A stretch of 51,430 nucleotides of DNA, filler included, from Malassezia furfur (lineage: Eukaryota): the NCBI GenBank assembly GCA_052055015.1. It is 2 parts of 2 records of this genome, joined end to end, with 100 filler letters (N's around TTAATTAATTAA, not from the genome) between each part and the next. Parts side by side here need not be neighbours in the genome. Positions count along the whole stretch, not along the records: positions 25,782 to 51,430 come from JBQJIT010000135.1; 1 more part is not named here. One strand, written 5' to 3'. Numbering within the stretch: the first letter of the stretch is position 1; every line of letters starts with the position of its first letter. The position numbers and the translations under genes are program-made. The notes beneath the pieces were generated by a model. The model made no database searches and was not told where the DNA came from. It saw nothing but the letters and a program-made list of their open reading frames with translations. This document shows, one piece after another, positions 1,417-44,713 of this stretch.

Positions 1417-3660
1417 ATGAGCACGGTGCGAGGCGACCGCCTCGCGGACGCGGATGCGCGCGTGATGCTGTCGCTGCTGCGCACAGTCATCCTGATCATG
1501 ATCATTGGAGCCGCGGTGGCCTCGCGGCTGTTCGCGGTGGTGCGCTACGAGTCGATCATCCACGAGTTCGACCCGTGGTTCAACTACCGGGCGACCAAGG
1601 TGCTCACCAAGGACGGCTACTACCGGTTCTGGAACTGGTTCGACCCCACCGCGTGGTACCCACTCGGGCGCGCCGCGGGCGGCACCGTGTTCCCCGGCCT
1701 GATGATCACGAGCGGCACGCTGTACAACATCCTGCACTTTTTCAACATCCCCGTCAACATTCGCGACATCTGCGTGATGCTCGCGCCGCTGTTCAGCGGA
1801 TTCACGGCGCTCGCCGCATACGCCTTCACCAAGACGATGAAGGACGAGTCGGCCGGCCTGCTCGCCGCGCTGTTTGTCGGCATCGCGCCGGGCTACATCT
1901 CGCGCTCGGTCGCTGGCTCGTACGACAACGAGGCGATCGCCATCTTCCTGCTGCTCTTCACCTTCTACCTGTGGATCCGCGCGGTGAAGGACGGCAGTAT
2001 GCTGTACGGCGTCTTCACCGCGCTCTTCTACTTCTACATGGTTGCAGCGTGGGGCGGCTACGTGTTCATCACCAACATGATTCCGCTGCACGTGTTTGTG
2101 CTGTTGCTCATGGGTCGCTACAGCACGCGCGTGTACGTCGCCTACTCGTCGTTCTACGTGATTGGAACGCTGGCGAGCATGCAGATCCCCTTTGTTGGCT
2201 TCCAGCCCGTGCGCACCAGCGAGCACATGGCCGCGCTCGGCGTGTTTGGCCTGCTGCAGCTCGTGGCGCTCACCGAGCTGATGCGCTCGTACGTCAACAC
2301 GAGCCAGTTTAAGCTGCTCGTGCGCGCGTTTGTCGTGGTGGTCGCGGCACTCGCGTTTGCCGCGCTCGTCGCGCTGACGTACGGCGGGTACATCGCGCCG
2401 TGGACCGGCCGCTTCTACTCCCTCTGGGACACGGGCTACGCCAAGAAGCACATCCCGATCATCGCCTCGGTCTCGGAGCACCAGCCGCCCGCGTGGCCCG
2501 CGTACTTCATGGACCTGCAGGCGCTCATCGTCTTCTTCCCGGTGGGCGTCTTCTTCCTGTTCAAGCAGCTGCGCGACGAGCACGTGTTTGTGATCATCTA
2601 CGCGGTGATGGGCTCCTACTTCTCGGGCGTGATGGTGCGCCTGATGCTCACGCTCACACCGTGCGTGTGCGTGTGCGCGGCGGTCGCCGTCAGCACGCTG
2701 CTCGACACGTTTGCAACGCCGAACCCGCCACCGGCGCCGATGCCTTCGGCCACCAAGAAGAGCGCCAAGGGCAAGCGCGACGCCAGCGACGAGGTGCCCG
2801 ACGTGCCCGACGTGCCGCGCCGCGCGCCGCGCATCGCGTCGCTCGCGACGCGCGCGCTCGTGTTTGTGTCGATGCTCAGCATGCTGGTCCTGTTTGTGCT
2901 GCACTGCACCTACACGACCGCCTCGGCGTACTCGTCGCCATCGGTGGTGCTGGCCTCGTCGCGCCCGGACGGGAGCATGTCGATGATCGACGACTTCCGC
3001 GAGGCGTACTACTGGCTCCACGAAAACACCAAGCGCGACGCCAAAGTGATGAGCTGGTGGGACTACGGCTACCAGATCGCCGGGTTCGCCGACCGCCCGA
3101 CGCTCGTCGACAACAACACGTGGAACAACACGCACATTGCGACCGTCGGCCGCGCCATGGCGACGACTGAGGAAAAGGCGTACCCGATTCTACGCAAGCA
3201 CGACGTGGACTACATCCTGATCATCTTTGGTGGGCTCATCGGCTACAGCGGCGACGACCTCAACAAGTTCCTGTGGATGATCCGCATCTCGCAGGGCATC
3301 TGGCCCGAGGAGATCAACGAGAGCAAGTTCTTCACGCCCAACGGCGAGTACCGCGTCGACGACCAGGCCACGCCCACCATGCGCGAGAGCCTCATGTACA
3401 AGATGAGCTACTACCGCTTCAACGAGCTGTTCGGCGGCGGGCCAGCGACCGACCGCGTGCGCGGCTCGCGCGGGCCGTCCAAGTCGCCGGAGCTGAGCAT
3501 CCTCGACGAGGTGTTCACCTCGCAAAACTGGCTCGTGCGCATATACCAGGTGAAGAAGGAGGACCCACTCGCACGTCGCTTGGCGCGCGCTCGCGCATTT
3601 GAGCAGGGCGAGCGCCAAAAGCACGCCGAGTTTGCGACACACGGCAACGTCGTTTCCTAG
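1417..3660 (+). CDS. STT3: Oligosaccharyltransferase catalytic subunit STT3
   Basis: IIHEFDPWFNYR, GSYDNE, SVSEHQP, WWDYG and DNNTWNNTHIA motifs; multi-TM. Likely start ATG 1417 (MSTVRGD), not the ORF-track start. Confidence 0.97.
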   Translation: MSTVRGDRLADADARVMLSLLRTVILIMIIGAAVASRLFAVVRYESIIHEFDPWFNYRATKVLTKDGYYRFWNWFDPTAWYPLGRAAGGTVFPGLMITSGTLYNILHFFNIPVNIRDICVMLAPLFSGFTALAAYAFTKTMKDESAGLLAALFVGIAPGYISRSVAGSYDNEAIAIFLLLFTFYLWIRAVKDGSMLYGVFTALFYFYMVAAWGGYVFITNMIPLHVFVLLLMGRYSTRVYVAYSSFYVIGTLASMQIPFVGFQPVRTSEHMAALGVFGLLQLVALTELMRSYVNTSQFKLLVRAFVVVVAALAFAALVALTYGGYIAPWTGRFYSLWDTGYAKKHIPIIASVSEHQPPAWPAYFMDLQALIVFFPVGVFFLFKQLRDEHVFVIIYAVMGSYFSGVMVRLMLTLTPCVCVCAAVAVSTLLDTFATPNPPPAPMPSATKKSAKGKRDASDEVPDVPDVPRRAPRIASLATRALVFVSMLSMLVLFVLHCTYTTASAYSSPSVVLASSRPDGSMSMIDDFREAYYWLHENTKRDAKVMSWWDYGYQIAGFADRPTLVDNNTWNNTHIATVGRAMATTEEKAYPILRKHDVDYILIIFGGLIGYSGDDLNKFLWMIRISQGIWPEEINESKFFTPNGEYRVDDQATPTMRESLMYKMSYYRFNELFGGGPATDRVRGSRGPSKSPELSILDEVFTSQNWLVRIYQVKKEDPLARRLARARAFEQGERQKHAEFATHGNVVS

Positions 3661-3923: not shown

Positions 3924-5352
3924 CTACAGCGGTACAGATTGGGTCGCGCCAAAGGGCACCGTACGTAGGAAGGCCGCAGGCAGGCGCTCCAACTCGAGCG
4001 CGTGCGCCAAGTCCTTGGGCGGATCGTCCCAGCGCTCGTCTGCATCGTTAGCCGCGCCCATGCGCGCCATACGTACCGCTCATACTCCACGTTCCCCAGT
4101 GCATTGCAAAGCTCGTGCGCGCGCCCACATCGCGCGCTACACACACCGAGCCATGCGGGTCCATGTGCTGCAGGCTGAGATGCCAGCGTGGCTCGTACGA
4201 TCCGATTGGGATCGTCGCCAGCGCAAACGGTCCGTACATGCGGCCCACCGCCTGGAACAGCGAGGGGCTGTAGCCCGAGTCGCCGCAGAAAAAGAGACGC
4301 GCGTCGGGCTCGTCGGCCGCTTCCACCTGCACTGCGTACGAGTTCCACAGCGACTTGTTGGTATCGAGCGGCGTGCGTGCACTCCAGTGGCTCGCGGGCA
4401 CCGCCGCGACGCGCAGCGTGCGCTCGGCAGAGCGCACACCGGCATCCGCCTGCACAGAGACGCGGAACGCCGACTGCGCCTCTTCCCACCAGCTCAGCTC
4501 GGTGATCTGTTCCGGACGCACCCCGCTGCGGACCAGCAGCGGCGCCACATTCTGCGGCACGATCCACCGCGTGCGGTGGGGGATGTGGGGGACGATAGAC
4601 AGGTCGAGATGGTCAAAGTGACTAGGTCAGACGCTCCACGTACTTGTGCGACACTAGCACCACGTCGACGTTGCGGATCTCGTCAATGGTGCACGGCATC
4701 GGCCGCATCCGCGTCGGGCTCAAAACACTCTCCAGCGGCTGCTTGCCAAACACAGGGTCCGTCAGCACCGTAAGGCCATGCATCTGAACCAAACAGGTGC
4801 TTTGCCCGATCCTACACAAGGTTAGTCGCCGCACCCACACACACACACGTACCACGTATAAGTAATCCCCGAGGCGGGCGCCGCAGGCTCCGTTCCCGAG
4901 CCCCACAGGCGCGCCGTGTCCAACTGCTGCACGGGCAGCAGTGCCTCAATTTTTTTGCGACCTTCTTCGGTCTTCTCGTCCTGCGCAAAGCCGCCATCCC
5001 AGCCAAAGCGGCCGTGGTACAACGCGGTGTGCACCACCTTCCACCACATCCACTCCCACATGCCCTGTTCGCGCCATTCCGGTGTCACGTTCAGGTATCG
5101 ACCGCAAAACCGGAGCGGTGCAAAGCGTGACATGATGTCGGCGCGCTCTTTCTCACTCGCACAGCCGAACCAAGCGGCATCCTTCTCATCGCCGCGCAAC
5201 TGCAGCGGGTGCTTGCGTTGACGCGCGCGCAGTGCGAGATGCCGGTGCGTCTCTTGGAATAGGTAAAATACACCCCAGGCACCTGCCCAGGCGCCTAGCG
5301 CATACCCGAGCGTACGGCCCGGCGACCGTCCCAGCGCACGCAGCACCTCCAT
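3924..5352 (-). CDS. FMP30: N-acyl-phosphatidylethanolamine phospholipase D (metallo-beta-lactamase fold, FMP30-like), 3 introns
   Basis: Splicing 4812-4852, 4622-4643 and 4040-4076 gives YTWIGQST, TDPVF, SHNHFDHLD, GDSGY, PIGSYEP, MHWGTW..DE..DPP; stop at 3924-3926. Confidence 0.88.
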
Positions 5353-21545: not shown

Positions 21546-22612
21546 TTATAGTGCCTGGTCCCTAGATGCGTGCTTGTTTCCTCGAAAGACGCGAAAGTTT
21601 TCGGTCAGCCGCGCGCCCAGCGCAGCAGGGTCTTCTCCGCGAACCTGCGCAATCAGCGCCACCACGTCGTGCACGCTCCGCGCCAGCTCGGCACAGCAGT
21701 TCTGGTCCGACTCGCTCAGCACACGGTCCAGATCGCACGCAGCGATTTGCGCGTCGAGGTTTTTTTGACGGTGGTTGATGGTTCTGCGTCAGAGTGTACA
21801 CGTACAAAGAGAACGAAATGTACACGTTGGGATGCGCCTGCTGCACACCACGGATGCTTTCGGGACTCAGCGTACAGCTGTGCAACACGAGTCCTGTCGT
21901 CAGGGCATCAACATACGGATATCGGCAAACGACTTCTCCTTGCGCATTTCGTCCAGGAAGGCAGTCGTCTGCCCAGCTGCACGGACGCTATGCATGCTGA
22001 CACTGCGACCCAGCGCACAAGCCATCTGCACCTGGGGACGCAGCACCGCGAGCTGGTGGTCAATCGGAGTCTGGAGCCGCGTGAGTTGGCGTCCACCGAC
22101 ACGCGGGTCCGGGATCCGGAAACTGCGGTCGAGTCCGACTTCACCCACGAGGGCTTGGGGGAAGGATTTGAGGTGCGCAGACAGCTGGTCGAGAGCCTCG
22201 CTGAGCGGCGTCGGCGACGGCAAGGCGTCGTACAATGCAGCCGTCTCGTCGTCCTGGGCCTCGCCGAACAGCCGGGCATAATGGGTGCGGGCATCCGGAG
22301 TCTTCTCGAGCGAGAGGGTATGTGCCGCCCATGGATGGTATCCTACTGGTGAGCACATCACTTACCGAAGCAAGGCACGACCTTGCCGTCGTCCACCGTG
22401 CGCGCCAGGTCCGCGACGCGAGGTTGGTCCACCGTGTCCGTGGACATGACGCAGATCTGGCGCAGGTCGACGCGCTTCACCTCCTCAACCCAGTCCTCCC
22501 ATTTCCTTCCATGCCGCAGTTCCTCGGTGGGATGGCAATGCGCTGCGGTGAGCCAGGCACCGTACCCTGCGTCAGTGCGGCGGCCACCTACATCAACCAA
22601 AGTGGAGGTCAT
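21546..22612 (-). CDS. TatD-family metallohydrolase (Scn1/Cut9-interacting type), 5 introns incl. a 1-nt exon
   Basis: Introns 22567-22591, 22543-22565, 22343-22365, 21894-21916, 21784-21805 give LVDAHCHP, FGYHPW, VGEVGLD, SMHSV, LHSC, LSESD. Confidence 0.85.
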
Positions 22613-28549: not shown

Positions 28550-30258
28550 TCACGTGCGGTCTGGGCGAGGGGCGGTGCGCTGCACGTCTGCCTCGCCGTG
28601 GGCGCGCAGGCGCCGCAGCGCCGCGGCAGGCTTGGCGAGCAGGTCGAGGCGCTCTGTGGCGACCTGGCTGCTCTTGTCGACATGCGGGTGATGTGGGTTG
28701 ATCTGCTCGTCTGGCGGCTGCTCTCCATGCACCGCGCGGGAAAAGGGCTGCGCGGGGCGTTCGTAGACCTTCACCTCGCCGTTCGCCTCCGACTTTTCCA
28801 AGTCCTCGGACAGCGGCTCCTTGTCGGCGAAGAGCGATGCAAAAAAATCGCGCCAGCTGTGCTGCTCGTGCTCGGACACGGGTGCGGTACGCGTGCGGGT
28901 GACGGTCAGGGTGCGCGTCTGCCGGACGACGTGCGGACCAAAGTAGACGATCGGCACCGTGATGCCATGCGTGAGCACCGACGAGAACACGCAGAACAGC
29001 ACGACAGGTGCCACGACGCGGCGCAGGTGGTTGCGTGTGCCGTCGTCGGGCACCTTGCGGATGGCCACCTCGATGTAGTACACGGCGCCGACGCCGATCG
29101 GGCCAAACCACCCCGCAAAGCACGCCTCCTTCCAGGTGCGCAGCGTGGGGATGATCTTGTACGTGAGCATCACCCACGGCAGGCGGCGGAAGAGGATCAC
29201 GAGGATACCCAGCACCACGACGCGCCACCCATTCATCCCGATCGCCATGTCGCTGTAGTCTTGCCATGGGATGATCATGCCAATGTACAAAAAGATGGCC
29301 GTATTGAACAGCATGTCCAGAATCTCTTGGAAGTCGGTCTCCTCCTGTCGCAGGCGGAACCAGTCGTCCCACGTGAAGCTGTTGCCCGCCACAAAGCACG
29401 CCAAAATGTCGTCCGTGCCAAACAGACCCGCCGTCCCCAGCGTGAACATGGCGAGCGCAAAGCCGTAGCTGAAGAAGTTGTGCATGTCGATCAGTTTGTG
29501 CTCCGCGGCCCAGCGCAGCACCTTGCGTGCCAGATAGCCCAGCAGCGCGCCGTACACACACGACAGCAGGATTTGGTACACAATCACGCTGTAGAACCAG
29601 CGCCAGACCTCGTCGCCGACCGACTCGCCGTAGTCGGAGTGCGTGCGTGCCAGCAGGTACACGGCCAGGAACAAAAAGGGGAAGCCCAGCCCGTCGTTTG
29701 CGCCGCTCTCGGCCAGGATAATGTGCCGCACACGCTCCTCGACGTGCTCCTCCGCAAACCGACCCGAAGTGATCGAGTTGGCCAGCACAGGGTCGGTCGG
29801 CGTGACGGCAGCGGCGATGCACAGCGCCTCTAGGTACGACAGGTCCTTGATCATCGCCCAGACAAACAGCGCCGTGGTGAACCACGCGGCGGTCATCACC
29901 ATGAGGAGCAGCACCGTCAAACTGTACCTTTTCTTCCAGAGGTACTTTTCCGGCAAGCTGATCCCGGTAAACAGCACCTGGACGCCAATCACCAGTCGCG
30001 CGAGCTGGTAGGTGACCTCGTTCGTGTCCTCCTCACTGCCCCACGAAAACGGGTCGACCCAGTTCAGGACGTGCGGGCCGGCCAAAATGCTGCATGAGAC
30101 GTCACAACGTACCCGACCGTCGTGGCGAGCAGCGGCTCCGAGAGGTAGAGTCGCTCTTTCACCACATAACTAAACAGACCATAGAATACAATGAACCCGC
30201 CCATGATGGCGAGCCCCTTGGAGACCTGCGAGAGCTCGGTCTCGATAATGTCCAACAT
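28550..30258 (-). CDS. NHA1: Plasma-membrane Na+(K+)/H+ antiporter (CPA1), 1 intron (30090-30112)
   Basis: VKERLYLSE, TPTDPVLA, AESGANDGLGFPF, GTDDILACF, FAGWFGPIGVGA. Confidence 0.92.
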
Positions 30259-42306: not shown

Positions 42307-42792
42307 CTATTCGGTGTCGTGGTCATGCTCCGGCGTGTCGGTCGAGTGGGCGGTGCGCGACTCGCTCGCTTGCAGCATCTGCGCGAGCTGCTCCCGCACT
42401 TGCTGCGCAACGCGGCCGCTGGGCCCCAGCAGCGCCTCGCCGTCGCCATCGCCGCCGCCTGCCGACTCGGACATGGCATGCGGCGCGGCAAGTTTCCCGA
42501 CGAGGTCGGGGAAGAGGGGATTTTGGTCCAGTTCGCGCAGCAGGTCGCTGTGCCGCAGGCGTGCATCGCGAAAGACGTAGTGGTCCGGCCGCTTCTTGAG
42601 TGCATCCATCATGGCGTTGTCGGCCTGCTCGACAAACGCGGCGTGGTGCGCACTTTGCTGGAACTCGTGCAGGATCTGCTTGCGGATCAGATCAAAGTGC
42701 CCCTGGCGCTTGAACTCTTCGACAAGCGCCTCGGGCGTCCACTGCGTCGAGGGCGCGGCCTGCTTGTCCTGTGCTGCGGGAGACTCGGACAT
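42307..42792 (-). CDS. SHG1: COMPASS subunit Shg1/BOD1-domain protein
   Basis: TPEALVEEFKRQGHFDLIRKQILHEF matches the Shg1/BOD1 N-terminal motif. Confidence 0.75.
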   Translation of the reverse strand: MSESPAAQDKQAAPSTQWTPEALVEEFKRQGHFDLIRKQILHEFQQSAHHAAFVEQADNAMMDALKKRPDHYVFRDARLRHSDLLRELDQNPLFPDLVGKLAAPHAMSESAGGGDGDGEALLGPSGRVAQQVREQLAQMLQASESRTAHSTDTPEHDHDTE

Positions 42793-42826
42793 GTCTGTGG
42801 TCAGCGTGCTCGGCAGGAAGCCGGGC

Positions 42827-42960
42827 GCAAGTCAGAAACCGATGAATCCACAATGGCGTGCACCACGACCGCATCTGACACTTTGTACACTGTGTCGCGG
42901 CAGGCTTGCGCCAGGATACACGCCTTCGGTCCGCCCATCGGAAATGTTTCATCCTCGTGG
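42827..42960 (-). ncRNA. snR70: Box C/D snoRNA, snR70-like (18S Cm1639 guide), intronic
   Basis: Box C AGGATGA (42955-42949); guide CGATGGGCGG before D' CCGA, complementary to 18S CCGCCCGUCG; extra GTGTACAAAG complementary to the adjacent 18S CUUUGUACAC; box D CTGA (42835-42832); lies inside intron 42795-42978. End coordinates approximate. Confidence 0.82.
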
Positions 42961-43023
42961 CCCACGGCGGCGACGTACTCTCTGTGTGTTAGTCTGTCCC
43001 AACGCGTAGGGGGAAGGAGGGGG

Positions 43024-43122
43024 AATGATCAGACAAGGCTGAAACTGATAACAAAGACGTATTCTCCATCTTTAAATGCAGAGTAATTCTAGAGCTTTGG
43101 TACATTGTGGTTCATCACACAA
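43024..43122 (-). ncRNA. snR41: Box C/D snoRNA, snR41-like (18S Gm1126 guide) with second 18S guide, intronic
   Basis: Box C GTGATGA (43118-43112); AGCTCTAGAATTAC complementary to 18S GUAAUUCUAGAGCU; AGTTTCAGCCTTG before box D CTGA (43032-43029) complementary to 18S CAAGGCUGAAACU; inside intron 42982-43151. End coordinates approximate. Confidence 0.88.
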
Positions 43123-43264
43123 GAGGGTCGGGGGGATGGGGCGACACCTACCTTCTTCACAGCGGCATGACGGCGCAGAGCAAAACCCGGCGGCGGCCGT
43201 TGGCGCACGTGACCCCGGCGTGGTCTGGGCGGCACGCCGGGGCCGCGTGGGGTGTGTCCACACC

Positions 43265-44713
43265 ATGTCCTCGTTTGAAAGTTGGCAGTCCCCGCTTTCG
43301 AGCCGCTATGCGAGCAAAGAGATGTCGTCGCTCTTCTCGAATGCGACGCGTTTCAGCACGTGGCGCGAGCTGTGGCTGAACCTCGCGATCGCCGAGAAGG
43401 AGCTGGGCCTGCCCATCCCCCAGGAGGCCATCGACCAGATGAAGGCGCACCTCACGCTCGATGAGGAGCAGATGAAGCTCGCGGCCGAGGAAGAGAAGCG
43501 CCGCCGTCACGACGTTATGGCGCACGTCCACGTGTTCGGCCAAGTGGCCCCTGCCGCGGCGCCGTTCATCCACCTCGGTGCGACGTCGTGCTATGTCACC
43601 GACAACGCGGACCTGATCTTTTTGCGCCGTGGCCTGGACCTGCTGCTGCCGAAGCTTGCGCTGGTGATCCAGCGTCTGGCGTCGTTCGCGAACAAGTACC
43701 GTGACCAGCCGACGCTCGGTTTCACGCACATGCAGCCCGCGCAGCTGACGACGGTCGGCAAGCGTGCGACGCTGTGGATCCAGGACTTCTTGTGGGATCT
43801 GCGCAACCTGAAGCGTGCGCGCGACGACCTTGGCTTCCGTGGCGTGAAGGGCACGACCGGCACGCAGGCGAGCTTCTTGCAGCTCTTCGACGGCGACCAC
43901 GACAAGGTGGAGCAGCTCGACGAGCGCGTCACGGCGCTGTTCGACTTCCCCTATGCGCTGCCGGTGACCGGGCAGACGTACCCCCGCAAGATCGACATCG
44001 ATGTGCTGTCCACGCTGGCATCCTTCTCGGCGTCGGCGCTCAAGATGGCCACCGACATCCGCCTGCTGTGCCACCTCAAGGAGGTGGAGGAGCCGTTCGA
44101 GAAGGACCAGATCGGCTCGAGTGCGATGGCGTACAAGCGCAACCCGATGCGCAGCGAACGTGTGTGCGGCCTGGCACGCTGGCTCGGCAACACGCTCAAC
44201 AACGCGCGCGAGACGCACGGCGGGCAGTGGATGGAGCGCACGCTGGACGACAGTGCGAACCGCCGCCTGTCGATCCCCGAGGCGTTCCTGACCGCCGACG
44301 TGATCCTGACGCTGCTGCAGAACATCACCGAGGGGCTCGTGGTGTACCCCGCGATCATCAAGCGGCACATCGACGCCGAGCTGCCGTTCATGGCCACCGA
44401 GAACGTGATTATGGCTATGGTGCGTGCGGGCGGCGACCGCCAGGTGTGCCACGAGCACATCCGTGTGCTGTCGCACCAGGCGGCGCGCGTCGTCAAGGAG
44501 GAGGGCGGCGAGAATGACCTGATCGAGCGCATCCGCAACGAGCCCTACTTTGCGCCGATCGTCCCGCGCCTCGACGCGCTGCTCGACCCCAAGAGCTTCA
44601 CGGGCCGTGCGCCCGAGCAGGTCGACAGCTTCCTCAAGAAGTGGGTGCAGCCCGCGCTCCAGCCGTACGAGGCGCAGCTCCAGAGCGCCACCAAGGCCGA
44701 GCTCTCCGTGTAG
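43265..44713 (+). CDS. ADE13: Adenylosuccinate lyase
   Basis: [48 protein letters not shown]. Confidence 0.97.

Follow-up and report, generated by a model that had tools for sequence, protein, structure and literature searches.

We analysed a locus on the minus strand of a 51,430-nucleotide (nt) stretch of Malassezia furfur DNA (assembly GCA_052055015.1), called the window over its whole length, where an open reading frame (ORF) resembling SHG1 follows two intron-like segments in the part taken from record JBQJIT010000135.1. Read along the minus strand, exon 1 is followed by intron 1 with a first small nucleolar RNA (snoRNA 1), the micro-exon AGA, intron 2 with snoRNA 2, and the SHG1 ORF; each predicted intron contains one RNA with the shape of a box C/D snoRNA. 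The features of the locus, from the ADE13 side, are these:

43265 to 44713, plus strand: divergent ADE13 (adenylosuccinate lyase) ORF, with Pfam Lyase_1 and ADSL_C
43152 to 43264, minus strand: presumed exon 1 and the interval shared with divergent ADE13, from the sequence
43168 to 43157, minus strand: upstream ORF ATGCCGCTGTGA, then AGAAG up to the 5′ splice site, from the sequence
42982 to 43151, minus strand: predicted intron 1, 170 nt, with GTAGGT at 43151, CTAAC branch site at 42992-42988 and CAG ending at 42982
42979 to 42981, minus strand: micro-exon AGA, 3 nt, between both predicted introns
42795 to 42978, minus strand: predicted intron 2, 184 nt, with GTACGT at 42978, CTGAC branch site at 42804-42800 and CAG ending at 42795
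42307 to 42792, minus strand: SHG1-like ORF, 161 amino acids and stop, Pfam PF05205 COMPASS-Shg1 (E 1.4e-11)

The two nucleotides AC separate the 3′ end of intron 2 from the ATG at 42792. We took this ATG as the SHG1 start codon because all six homologues begin with an MSE-type N-terminus; SHG1 homologues in Malassezia species are 139-162 amino acids long, and the Shg1 of the window is 98% identical to an ENA protein and 85% identical to that of M. brasiliensis, which puts the window in Malassezia. From the ADE13 ATG to the first 5′ splice site there are 113 nt, and from the end of snoRNA 1 to the start of snoRNA 2 there are 72 nt. The predicted splice junction reads GAAGAAG-AGA-ACATGTCC. On re-reading the minus strand, we found the coordinates that the original prediction, made from the sequence alone, had given for the introns and the upstream ORF to be exact, with the AGA micro-exon and the ATG placed as it described. 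Its two box C/D snoRNAs were recovered too, an snR41 relative first and an snR70 relative second, in intron-like units separated by AGA.

Three sets of sequences served for comparison. Guide targets were read on a eukaryotic ribosomal DNA (rDNA) unit found in a bacterial assembly (L026), whose 18S is 1800 nt long and which also has a 5.8S and a 25S. Related snoRNAs were sought in 105 fungal metagenome loci gathered by the D-guide pattern of snoRNA 1. A Shg1 or ADE13 match was found, besides the window, in only two of these loci (L053 and L060), which are syntenic with it: their gene order is that of the window, with divergent ADE13, snoRNA 1, snoRNA 2 and SHG1. Identity to the window is 87-89% for ADE13 but only 42-44% for Shg1, and their Shg1 is close to none of the named Malassezia Shg1 proteins. 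We infer that both loci come from relatives within Malassezia, and they are treated below, with the window, as three species.

Box C/D snoRNAs carry a C box (consensus RUGAUGA) near the 5′ end and a D box (CUGA) near the 3′ end, drawn together by a terminal stem; their guides, complementary to rRNA over at least 10 nt, adjoin a D or D′ box and have the target facing their fifth nucleotide. The first of the two RNAs has the following elements:

43027 to 43122, minus strand: snoRNA 1, box C/D, snR41/Afu_455 family, from Rfam, guides and conservation
43118 to 43112, minus strand: C box GTGATGA
43096 to 43082, minus strand: D′ guide AGCTCTAGAATTACT
43081 to 43078, minus strand: D′ box CTGC
43070 to 43063, minus strand: possible C′ box GATGGAGA
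43046 to 43033, minus strand: D guide AGTTTCAGCCTTGT
43032 to 43029, minus strand: D box CTGA

The 14-nt D guide and its CTGA are identical to the Afu_455 consensus and match the snR41 consensus. The guide pairs over 14 base pairs (bp) with 18S 1121-1134 and adjoins CTGA, which sets the target at G1125 in reference numbering. In yeast, snR41 guides 18S Gm1126 (PMC8307265), and since both consensuses share the guide of snoRNA 1 we equate its target with that site. The model of the A. fumigatus snoRNA Afu_455 (RF01860) aligned end to end on snoRNA 1 with 41.3 bits (E 2e-5 in a local search, 0.0018 window-wide) and was the sole Rfam match at E ≤ 0.05 across the 51-kb window; the snR41 model (RF01218) aligned over its full length with 24.3 bits. 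Across the three species 70 of the 96 columns of snoRNA 1 (73%) are invariant.

The D′ guide is of another type. It pairs over 15 bp with 18S 151-165, adjoins CTGC, and targets A155. Its likeness is to U45 (human SNORD45 and the fungal U45 of Luo et al. 2013): with the guide CTCTAGAATTAC, position five falls on the second A of GGTAATTC. A155 and U168 of the reference 18S, which we take to be equivalent to A159 and U172 of human 18S, are 13 nt apart, as the human positions are. The targets listed for SNORD45B are human 18S A159 and U172 (PMC3766210, Table 3). Yeast snR41 guides A541 as well (PMC8307265), and the D′ guide of snoRNA 1 is directed at 18S 151-165 instead. Identification of snoRNA 1 as snR41 thus stood for its D guide and failed for its D′ guide, which is U45-type.

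In other fungal loci the U45 guide often belongs to a separate upstream snoRNA: in 52 of the 105 metagenome loci the A155-type guide is the D guide of an RNA lying upstream of the snR41-type one, whereas only in the window, L053 and L060 does it occupy the D′ position of the snR41-type snoRNA itself. The D′ guide of the snR41-type copies in 60 of the 105 loci is directed at 18S 1571-1581. snoRNA 1 is thus a predicted double guide that merges U45 (18S A155) and snR41 functions, and target switches of such a type are known in fungi (PMC5824354). As separate observations on these RNAs, the upstream U45-type snoRNA of the 52 loci lies about 230-470 nt from the snR41-type one among the matches listed, its second element is complementary to 25S 2995-3006, and the 18S 1571-1581 target corresponds to the region of the yeast snR57 site.

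The second RNA is of the snR70 family, with these elements:

42832 to 42955, minus strand: snoRNA 2, box C/D, snR70 family, from guide, accessory pairing and profile
42955 to 42949, minus strand: variant C box AGGATGA
42940 to 42931, minus strand: guide CGATGGGCGG, 10 nt
42929 to 42926, minus strand: D′ box CCGA, after a spacer A
within 42914 to 42900, minus strand: short hairpin capped by a GCAA loop
42890 to 42881, minus strand: accessory pairing element GTGTACAAAG
42852 to 42847, minus strand: C′-like box TGTGGA
within 42846 to 42836, minus strand: helix strand TTCATCGG
42835 to 42832, minus strand: D box CTGA

The guide is invariant in the three species; its pairing with 18S 1636-1645 makes C1639 the fifth nucleotide from D′. 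Just upstream of this target, 18S 1625-1634 pairs with the accessory element GTGTACAAAG, over 10 bp in the window and 8 bp in each relative, and the loop sequence GTGTACAA is invariant in all three. Two rRNA complements adjacent on the rRNA arose in 3 of 1000 shuffles of snoRNA 2. In yeast Cm1639 is guided by snR70 (PMC8307265). For this RNA van Nues et al. (2011) describe a guide of very few nucleotides, a D′ box that departs from the consensus but is conserved and, between D′ and C′, a loop whose extra pairing with rRNA directly upstream of the target stimulates methylation (PMC3116282). snoRNA 2 resembles S. cerevisiae snR70 in its D′ guide for C1639, short guide, divergent D′ box and pairing loop; it differs in its CCGA and AGGATGA boxes and in finding no match with the Rfam snR70 model. 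Over the three species 57% of its columns are invariant, its internal stems show compensatory changes, and in the computed minimum-energy fold GGGC/GCCC and CGAG/CTTG would pair around the C and D boxes.

A check of both introns against Rfam, suggested with the original prediction, gave Afu_455 on snoRNA 1, below its gathering score, and nothing for snoRNA 2. In seven fungal loci (L053, L060, L076, L084, L093, L103 and L127) Rfam 15 detected Afu_455 and Afu_294, and its snR70 model had no match at E ≤ 0.01 in any of them, with the snR70-type guide motif present in six (all except L076). Rfam thus cannot decide on snoRNA 2; its snR70 model seems too narrow for fungi beyond the budding yeasts. 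Among the 105 loci, the guide motif was found in 86, starting 85-182 nt past the D box of the snR41-type snoRNA, and most of the snR70-type copies listed have the layout C box, guide, CAGA or CATA, GTACAA, C′-like box and CTGA. The D′ box of snoRNA 2 is CCGA, as against CAGA or CATA in most metagenome copies. We built a profile (R1) from 62 non-redundant snR70-type copies, with Malassezia-like ones excluded. RNAalifold found zero consensus pairs in the alignment of the 62, and the profile was therefore one of sequence only. Its one match at E ≤ 1 in 59 kb was window 42831-42954 (17.6 bits, E 1.3e-4), and with filters off it matched L053 (12.8 bits, E 5.5e-4) and L060 (12.1 bits, E 8.8e-4).

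In snoRNA 2 the helix strand TTCATCGG is complementary to the 5′ flank of the guide (CCGATG), window 42941-42936 with 42844-42839, and elsewhere the same regions are complementary with lineage-specific sequences (ACGA/TCGT, ACGC/GCGT, GATGC/GCATC). At least four Watson-Crick pairs could form in 64 of 65 sequences compared with 847 of 2264 cross-type pairings, a length statistic and not a tree-aware test of covariation. This suggests a conserved intramolecular helix in snR70-type snoRNAs that may partly mask the guide; the portions of PMC3116282 drawn on here hold no mention of a helix between guide flank and C′-D spacer. We also considered TTCATCGGTTT, ahead of the D box in snoRNA 2, as a further methylation guide and rejected it in favour of the helix. 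Its candidate pairing with 18S 1398-1408 has two G-U pairs and is broken in L053; manual inspection gave two more candidates, one with 5.8S and one, containing a bulge, with 18S 1651-1661, which were likewise set aside for the helix.

The splice signals around both RNAs recur in the relatives. In L053 and L060 intron 1 has, at positions matching those of the window, GTAAGT before snoRNA 1 and a branch-like site and CAG after it; intron 2 begins with GTATGT or GTACGT and ends with CTAAC and TAG, at a distance of 2 and 1 nt from the SHG1 start codon. Splicing straight onto this ATG, as was originally proposed, is thus a prediction whose signals are kept in both syntenic relatives. The counterparts of AGA in the relatives are ACTAA (5 nt) and ATAT (4 nt), and a micro-exon that varies in length between 3, 5 and 4 nt fits an untranslated leader. 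In the three-species alignment the intron flanks are 6-22% invariant, compared with the 73% and 57% of the snoRNA bodies. The SHG1 coding sequence of L053 has in addition a 28-nt intron of its own (GTACGT ... CTGAT ... AAG; minus strand, locus position about 1700-1730, roughly 55-85 nt past the ATG), which restores the conserved LVDEF...RQGHFD frame when read by hand and is absent from that place in the window SHG1. Ordinary introns of the lineage can thus be very short, and the introns of 170 and 184 nt look sized to their cargo.

The sequences, the boxes, the guide complementarities, the family resemblance and the conservation of the signals in two relatives were observed directly. We regard it as probable that the locus represents the fungal snR41-snR70(-snR51) cluster in its Malassezia form, with a predicted spliced host that encodes SHG1. 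A transcript would start in the gap of about 110 nt beside ADE13 and carry two introns with one box C/D snoRNA each. Splicing would join exon 1, the 3-nt micro-exon and an exon in which only 2 nt precede the SHG1 ATG, and SHG1 mRNA would be a spliced by-product of snoRNA production; since the second 3′ splice site abuts the SHG1 ATG, any transcript that splices intron 2 has the SHG1 ORF as its next exon. The excised introns would be debranched and then trimmed to the ends protected by the snoRNA-protein particles. The D guide of snoRNA 1 would direct 2′-O-methylation of 18S at the yeast Gm1126 site and its D′ guide that of A155, the U45-type site. The 10-nt D′ guide of snoRNA 2 would direct methylation of 18S C1639, helped by pairing of the loop with the 10 nt just upstream, a kind of help demonstrated experimentally for yeast snR70 (PMC3116282). 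From the DNA we infer the transcription start, the splicing and its order, the accumulation of the snoRNAs, the methylations and the translation of SHG1 from the shared mRNA. A bolder proposal, which we consider quite improbable, is that in Malassezia an ancestral non-coding cluster host merged with SHG1, so that the mRNA of an H3K4 methyltransferase subunit would arise only via splicing of the snoRNA introns, the upstream ATG and the micro-exon would set how far a heavily transcribed host RNA is translated, and SHG1 dosage would be tied to snoRNA and ribosome output.

Much of this arrangement has precedent. The snR41-snR70-snR51 cluster is cluster III of Luo et al. (2013), one of three clusters that occur in nearly all the fungi they analysed, and in Basidiomycota, Ustilago maydis included, the snoRNAs of those clusters are all intronic (PMC3596301). 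The window has the same two families in the same order, with one snoRNA per predicted intron. Small or absent internal exons and stepwise splicing are reported for Hemiascomycetes, Euascomycetes and Archiascomycetes, and for Candida and Y. lipolytica; in the parts of that paper relied on here, exon loss is attributed to ascomycete groups and not to Basidiomycota (PMC3596301). As far as these sources go, earlier publications cover the cluster, its intronic layout with one snoRNA per intron, and internal exons that are tiny or absent. Specific to this locus, as read from the DNA, are the predicted protein-coding host, the absence of snR51 and the merged U45/snR41 double guide. The published cluster hosts have little coding potential (PMC3596301), whereas the predicted last exon in the window is the SHG1 ORF. 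The proposal of a snoRNA host unit fused to SHG1 therefore holds as an interpretation of the DNA and its syntenic signals, and the cluster arrangement itself is less unusual than had been supposed.

The third member of cluster III, snR51, had not been seen in the original prediction, and our searches agree. Guide words of snR51 type, with up to 1-2 mismatches allowed, were missing from the window and from the 4-kb loci of L053 and L060, except at minus-strand position 21983 of the window, where the single match is likely due to chance, and the Rfam snR51 model had no match in the window at E ≤ 0.05.

Several observations weigh against the interpretation that we prefer. The relatives are only two in number, both are metagenomic, and their taxonomy is our own deduction; the reference rRNA comes from a eukaryotic contig in a bacterial assembly and not from Malassezia; and in its 18S numbering the D-guide target of snoRNA 1 is G1125, not 1126. 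snoRNA 1 falls under the Rfam gathering scores (41.3 versus 48 bits for Afu_455 and 24.3 versus 50 bits for snR41), so that at gathering thresholds no model matched anywhere in the window, and ascomycete copies in the Rfam scan of fungal loci reached 60.9-66.4 bits. Most identities in the Rfam alignments fall within the C box or the 3′ half of snoRNA 1, which holds the D guide, with few over the D′ guide, and we ascribe the shortfall in score to the difference in that guide. The fold of snoRNA 1 is no better than that of shuffles (z +0.82), and a clear terminal stem was not found. For snoRNA 2, an Rfam search of intron 2 alone at E ≤ 10 returned only a 10-nt chance match and none for snR70. 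Its C box, AGGATGA, departs from the consensus with G for U at position 2, with the core GGATGA kept in all three species. Ten-base rRNA complements are moreover common by chance (snoRNA 2 has 6, the shuffle mean being 1.9), so the assignment of its guide rests on position, adjacency and conservation. Finally, the upstream ATG, if used, would hinder translation of SHG1 from the predicted spliced mRNA.

The last point bears on an alternative that accepts the snoRNAs and the introns as real. SHG1 might be expressed mostly from a separate mRNA with a short leader, starting in intron 2 within the 40 nt between the D box and the ATG, while the spliced host was untranslated or unstable; the DNA would then be common to both functions but the productive transcript would not. 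In each of the three species an upstream ATG opens a frame of 3, 3 and 8 sense codons, closed by a TGA ahead of the 5′ splice site, and in the predicted spliced leader this upstream ORF ends 8-17 nt before the main ATG, 10 nt in the window. Such short spacing would disfavour reinitiation, which speaks for a separate mRNA, as does the little coding potential of the published cluster hosts (PMC3596301). The conserved CATG could equally be a promoter motif of ADE13 or lie upstream of the start site, and the main SHG1 ATG has an A at -3 in all three species, both of which tell against a separate mRNA. We consider this alternative unlikely.

The conserved CATG belongs to a block around the upstream ATG, at 43161-43175 on the minus strand of the window (GC.G.CATG; TGCGGCCATGA in both relatives), that stands out in an ADE13-SHG1 gap of otherwise poor conservation. 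It could mark where the upstream ORF starts, where transcription begins or where a factor binds. A promoter common to ADE13 and the SHG1 host transcript within the 113-nt interval is plausible from the layout.

It is also conceivable, though very improbable, that both snoRNAs are released from an unspliced dicistronic precursor by an endonuclease and exonucleases, as in S. cerevisiae, and that the splice-like signals go unused. In all three species, despite diverged surroundings, each snoRNA lies between a consensus 5′ splice site on one side and a CTRAC-type branch site and YAG on the other, a conserved spacer hairpin was not seen by eye, and the three published clusters are all intronic in Basidiomycota (PMC3596301). 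Extremely improbable, finally, is that either snoRNA-like segment, or both, merely resembles a snoRNA by chance or is a decayed relic without function: Rfam scores that are absent or below gathering and the non-consensus C box of snoRNA 2 would suit such a view, but boxes and guides do not vary among the three divergent species, in which 73% and 57% of the snoRNA columns are invariant versus 6-22% in the flanks, the stems carry compensatory changes, an independent profile matches snoRNA 2 and the same layout occurs in 86 of the 105 fungal loci.

The host and cluster reading that we favour can be set beside other snoRNA hosts of intron-poor fungi, among eight of which Lim et al. (2021) count Malassezia sympodialis; the conserved-position introns of RPL7 and NOG2 in such fungi are tied to their snoRNAs (PMC8476143). 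There, host and intronic snoRNA are co-transcribed, and at SHG1 co-transcription is predicted from sequence. The RPL7 and NOG2 hosts act in ribosome biogenesis and have their introns in the coding sequence, whereas SHG1 encodes a COMPASS subunit and both its predicted introns lie in the 5′ leader. The titles and abstracts listed for the literature on Malassezia snoRNAs and on fungal snoRNAs in introns of untranslated regions contained no account of the SHG1 locus. The analysis annotates two previously unannotated snoRNAs in a yeast of human skin, predicts three 18S methylation sites, and offers an example of a compact, intron-poor genome that retains snoRNA-bearing introns. The U45 and snR41 functions, separate in other fungi, would sit here in one double-guide RNA. 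If the shared transcript is real, the host of a fungal snoRNA cluster has turned into the leader of a protein-coding gene, and the locus would be useful for studying the evolution of host genes and the splicing of exons of 3-5 nt; it points to no new type of biology.

A window-wide search for perfect 11-nt rRNA complements gave 194, compared with 145.5 ± 10.8 in shuffles, and was too noisy for use; the complement runs that we inspected (4914-4929, 30216-30229 and 40696) had no C/D boxes nearby. The first of these, on the plus strand, is a 16-nt perfect complement to reference 25S 1507-1522, which we judge to be chance in GC-rich sequence. The eukaryotic rDNA contigs from which the reference was chosen had been located by an exact 20-nt 18S motif inside bacterial assemblies. 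Contigs with this motif occur in at least 51 bacterial or archaeal assemblies (L001-L051), where the eukaryotic rRNA is contamination. All five of the assemblies scanned with Rfam (L009, L017, L023, L026 and L042) have eukaryotic rRNA genes; the rDNA unit of L026 is complete, and its 25S bears a group I intron.

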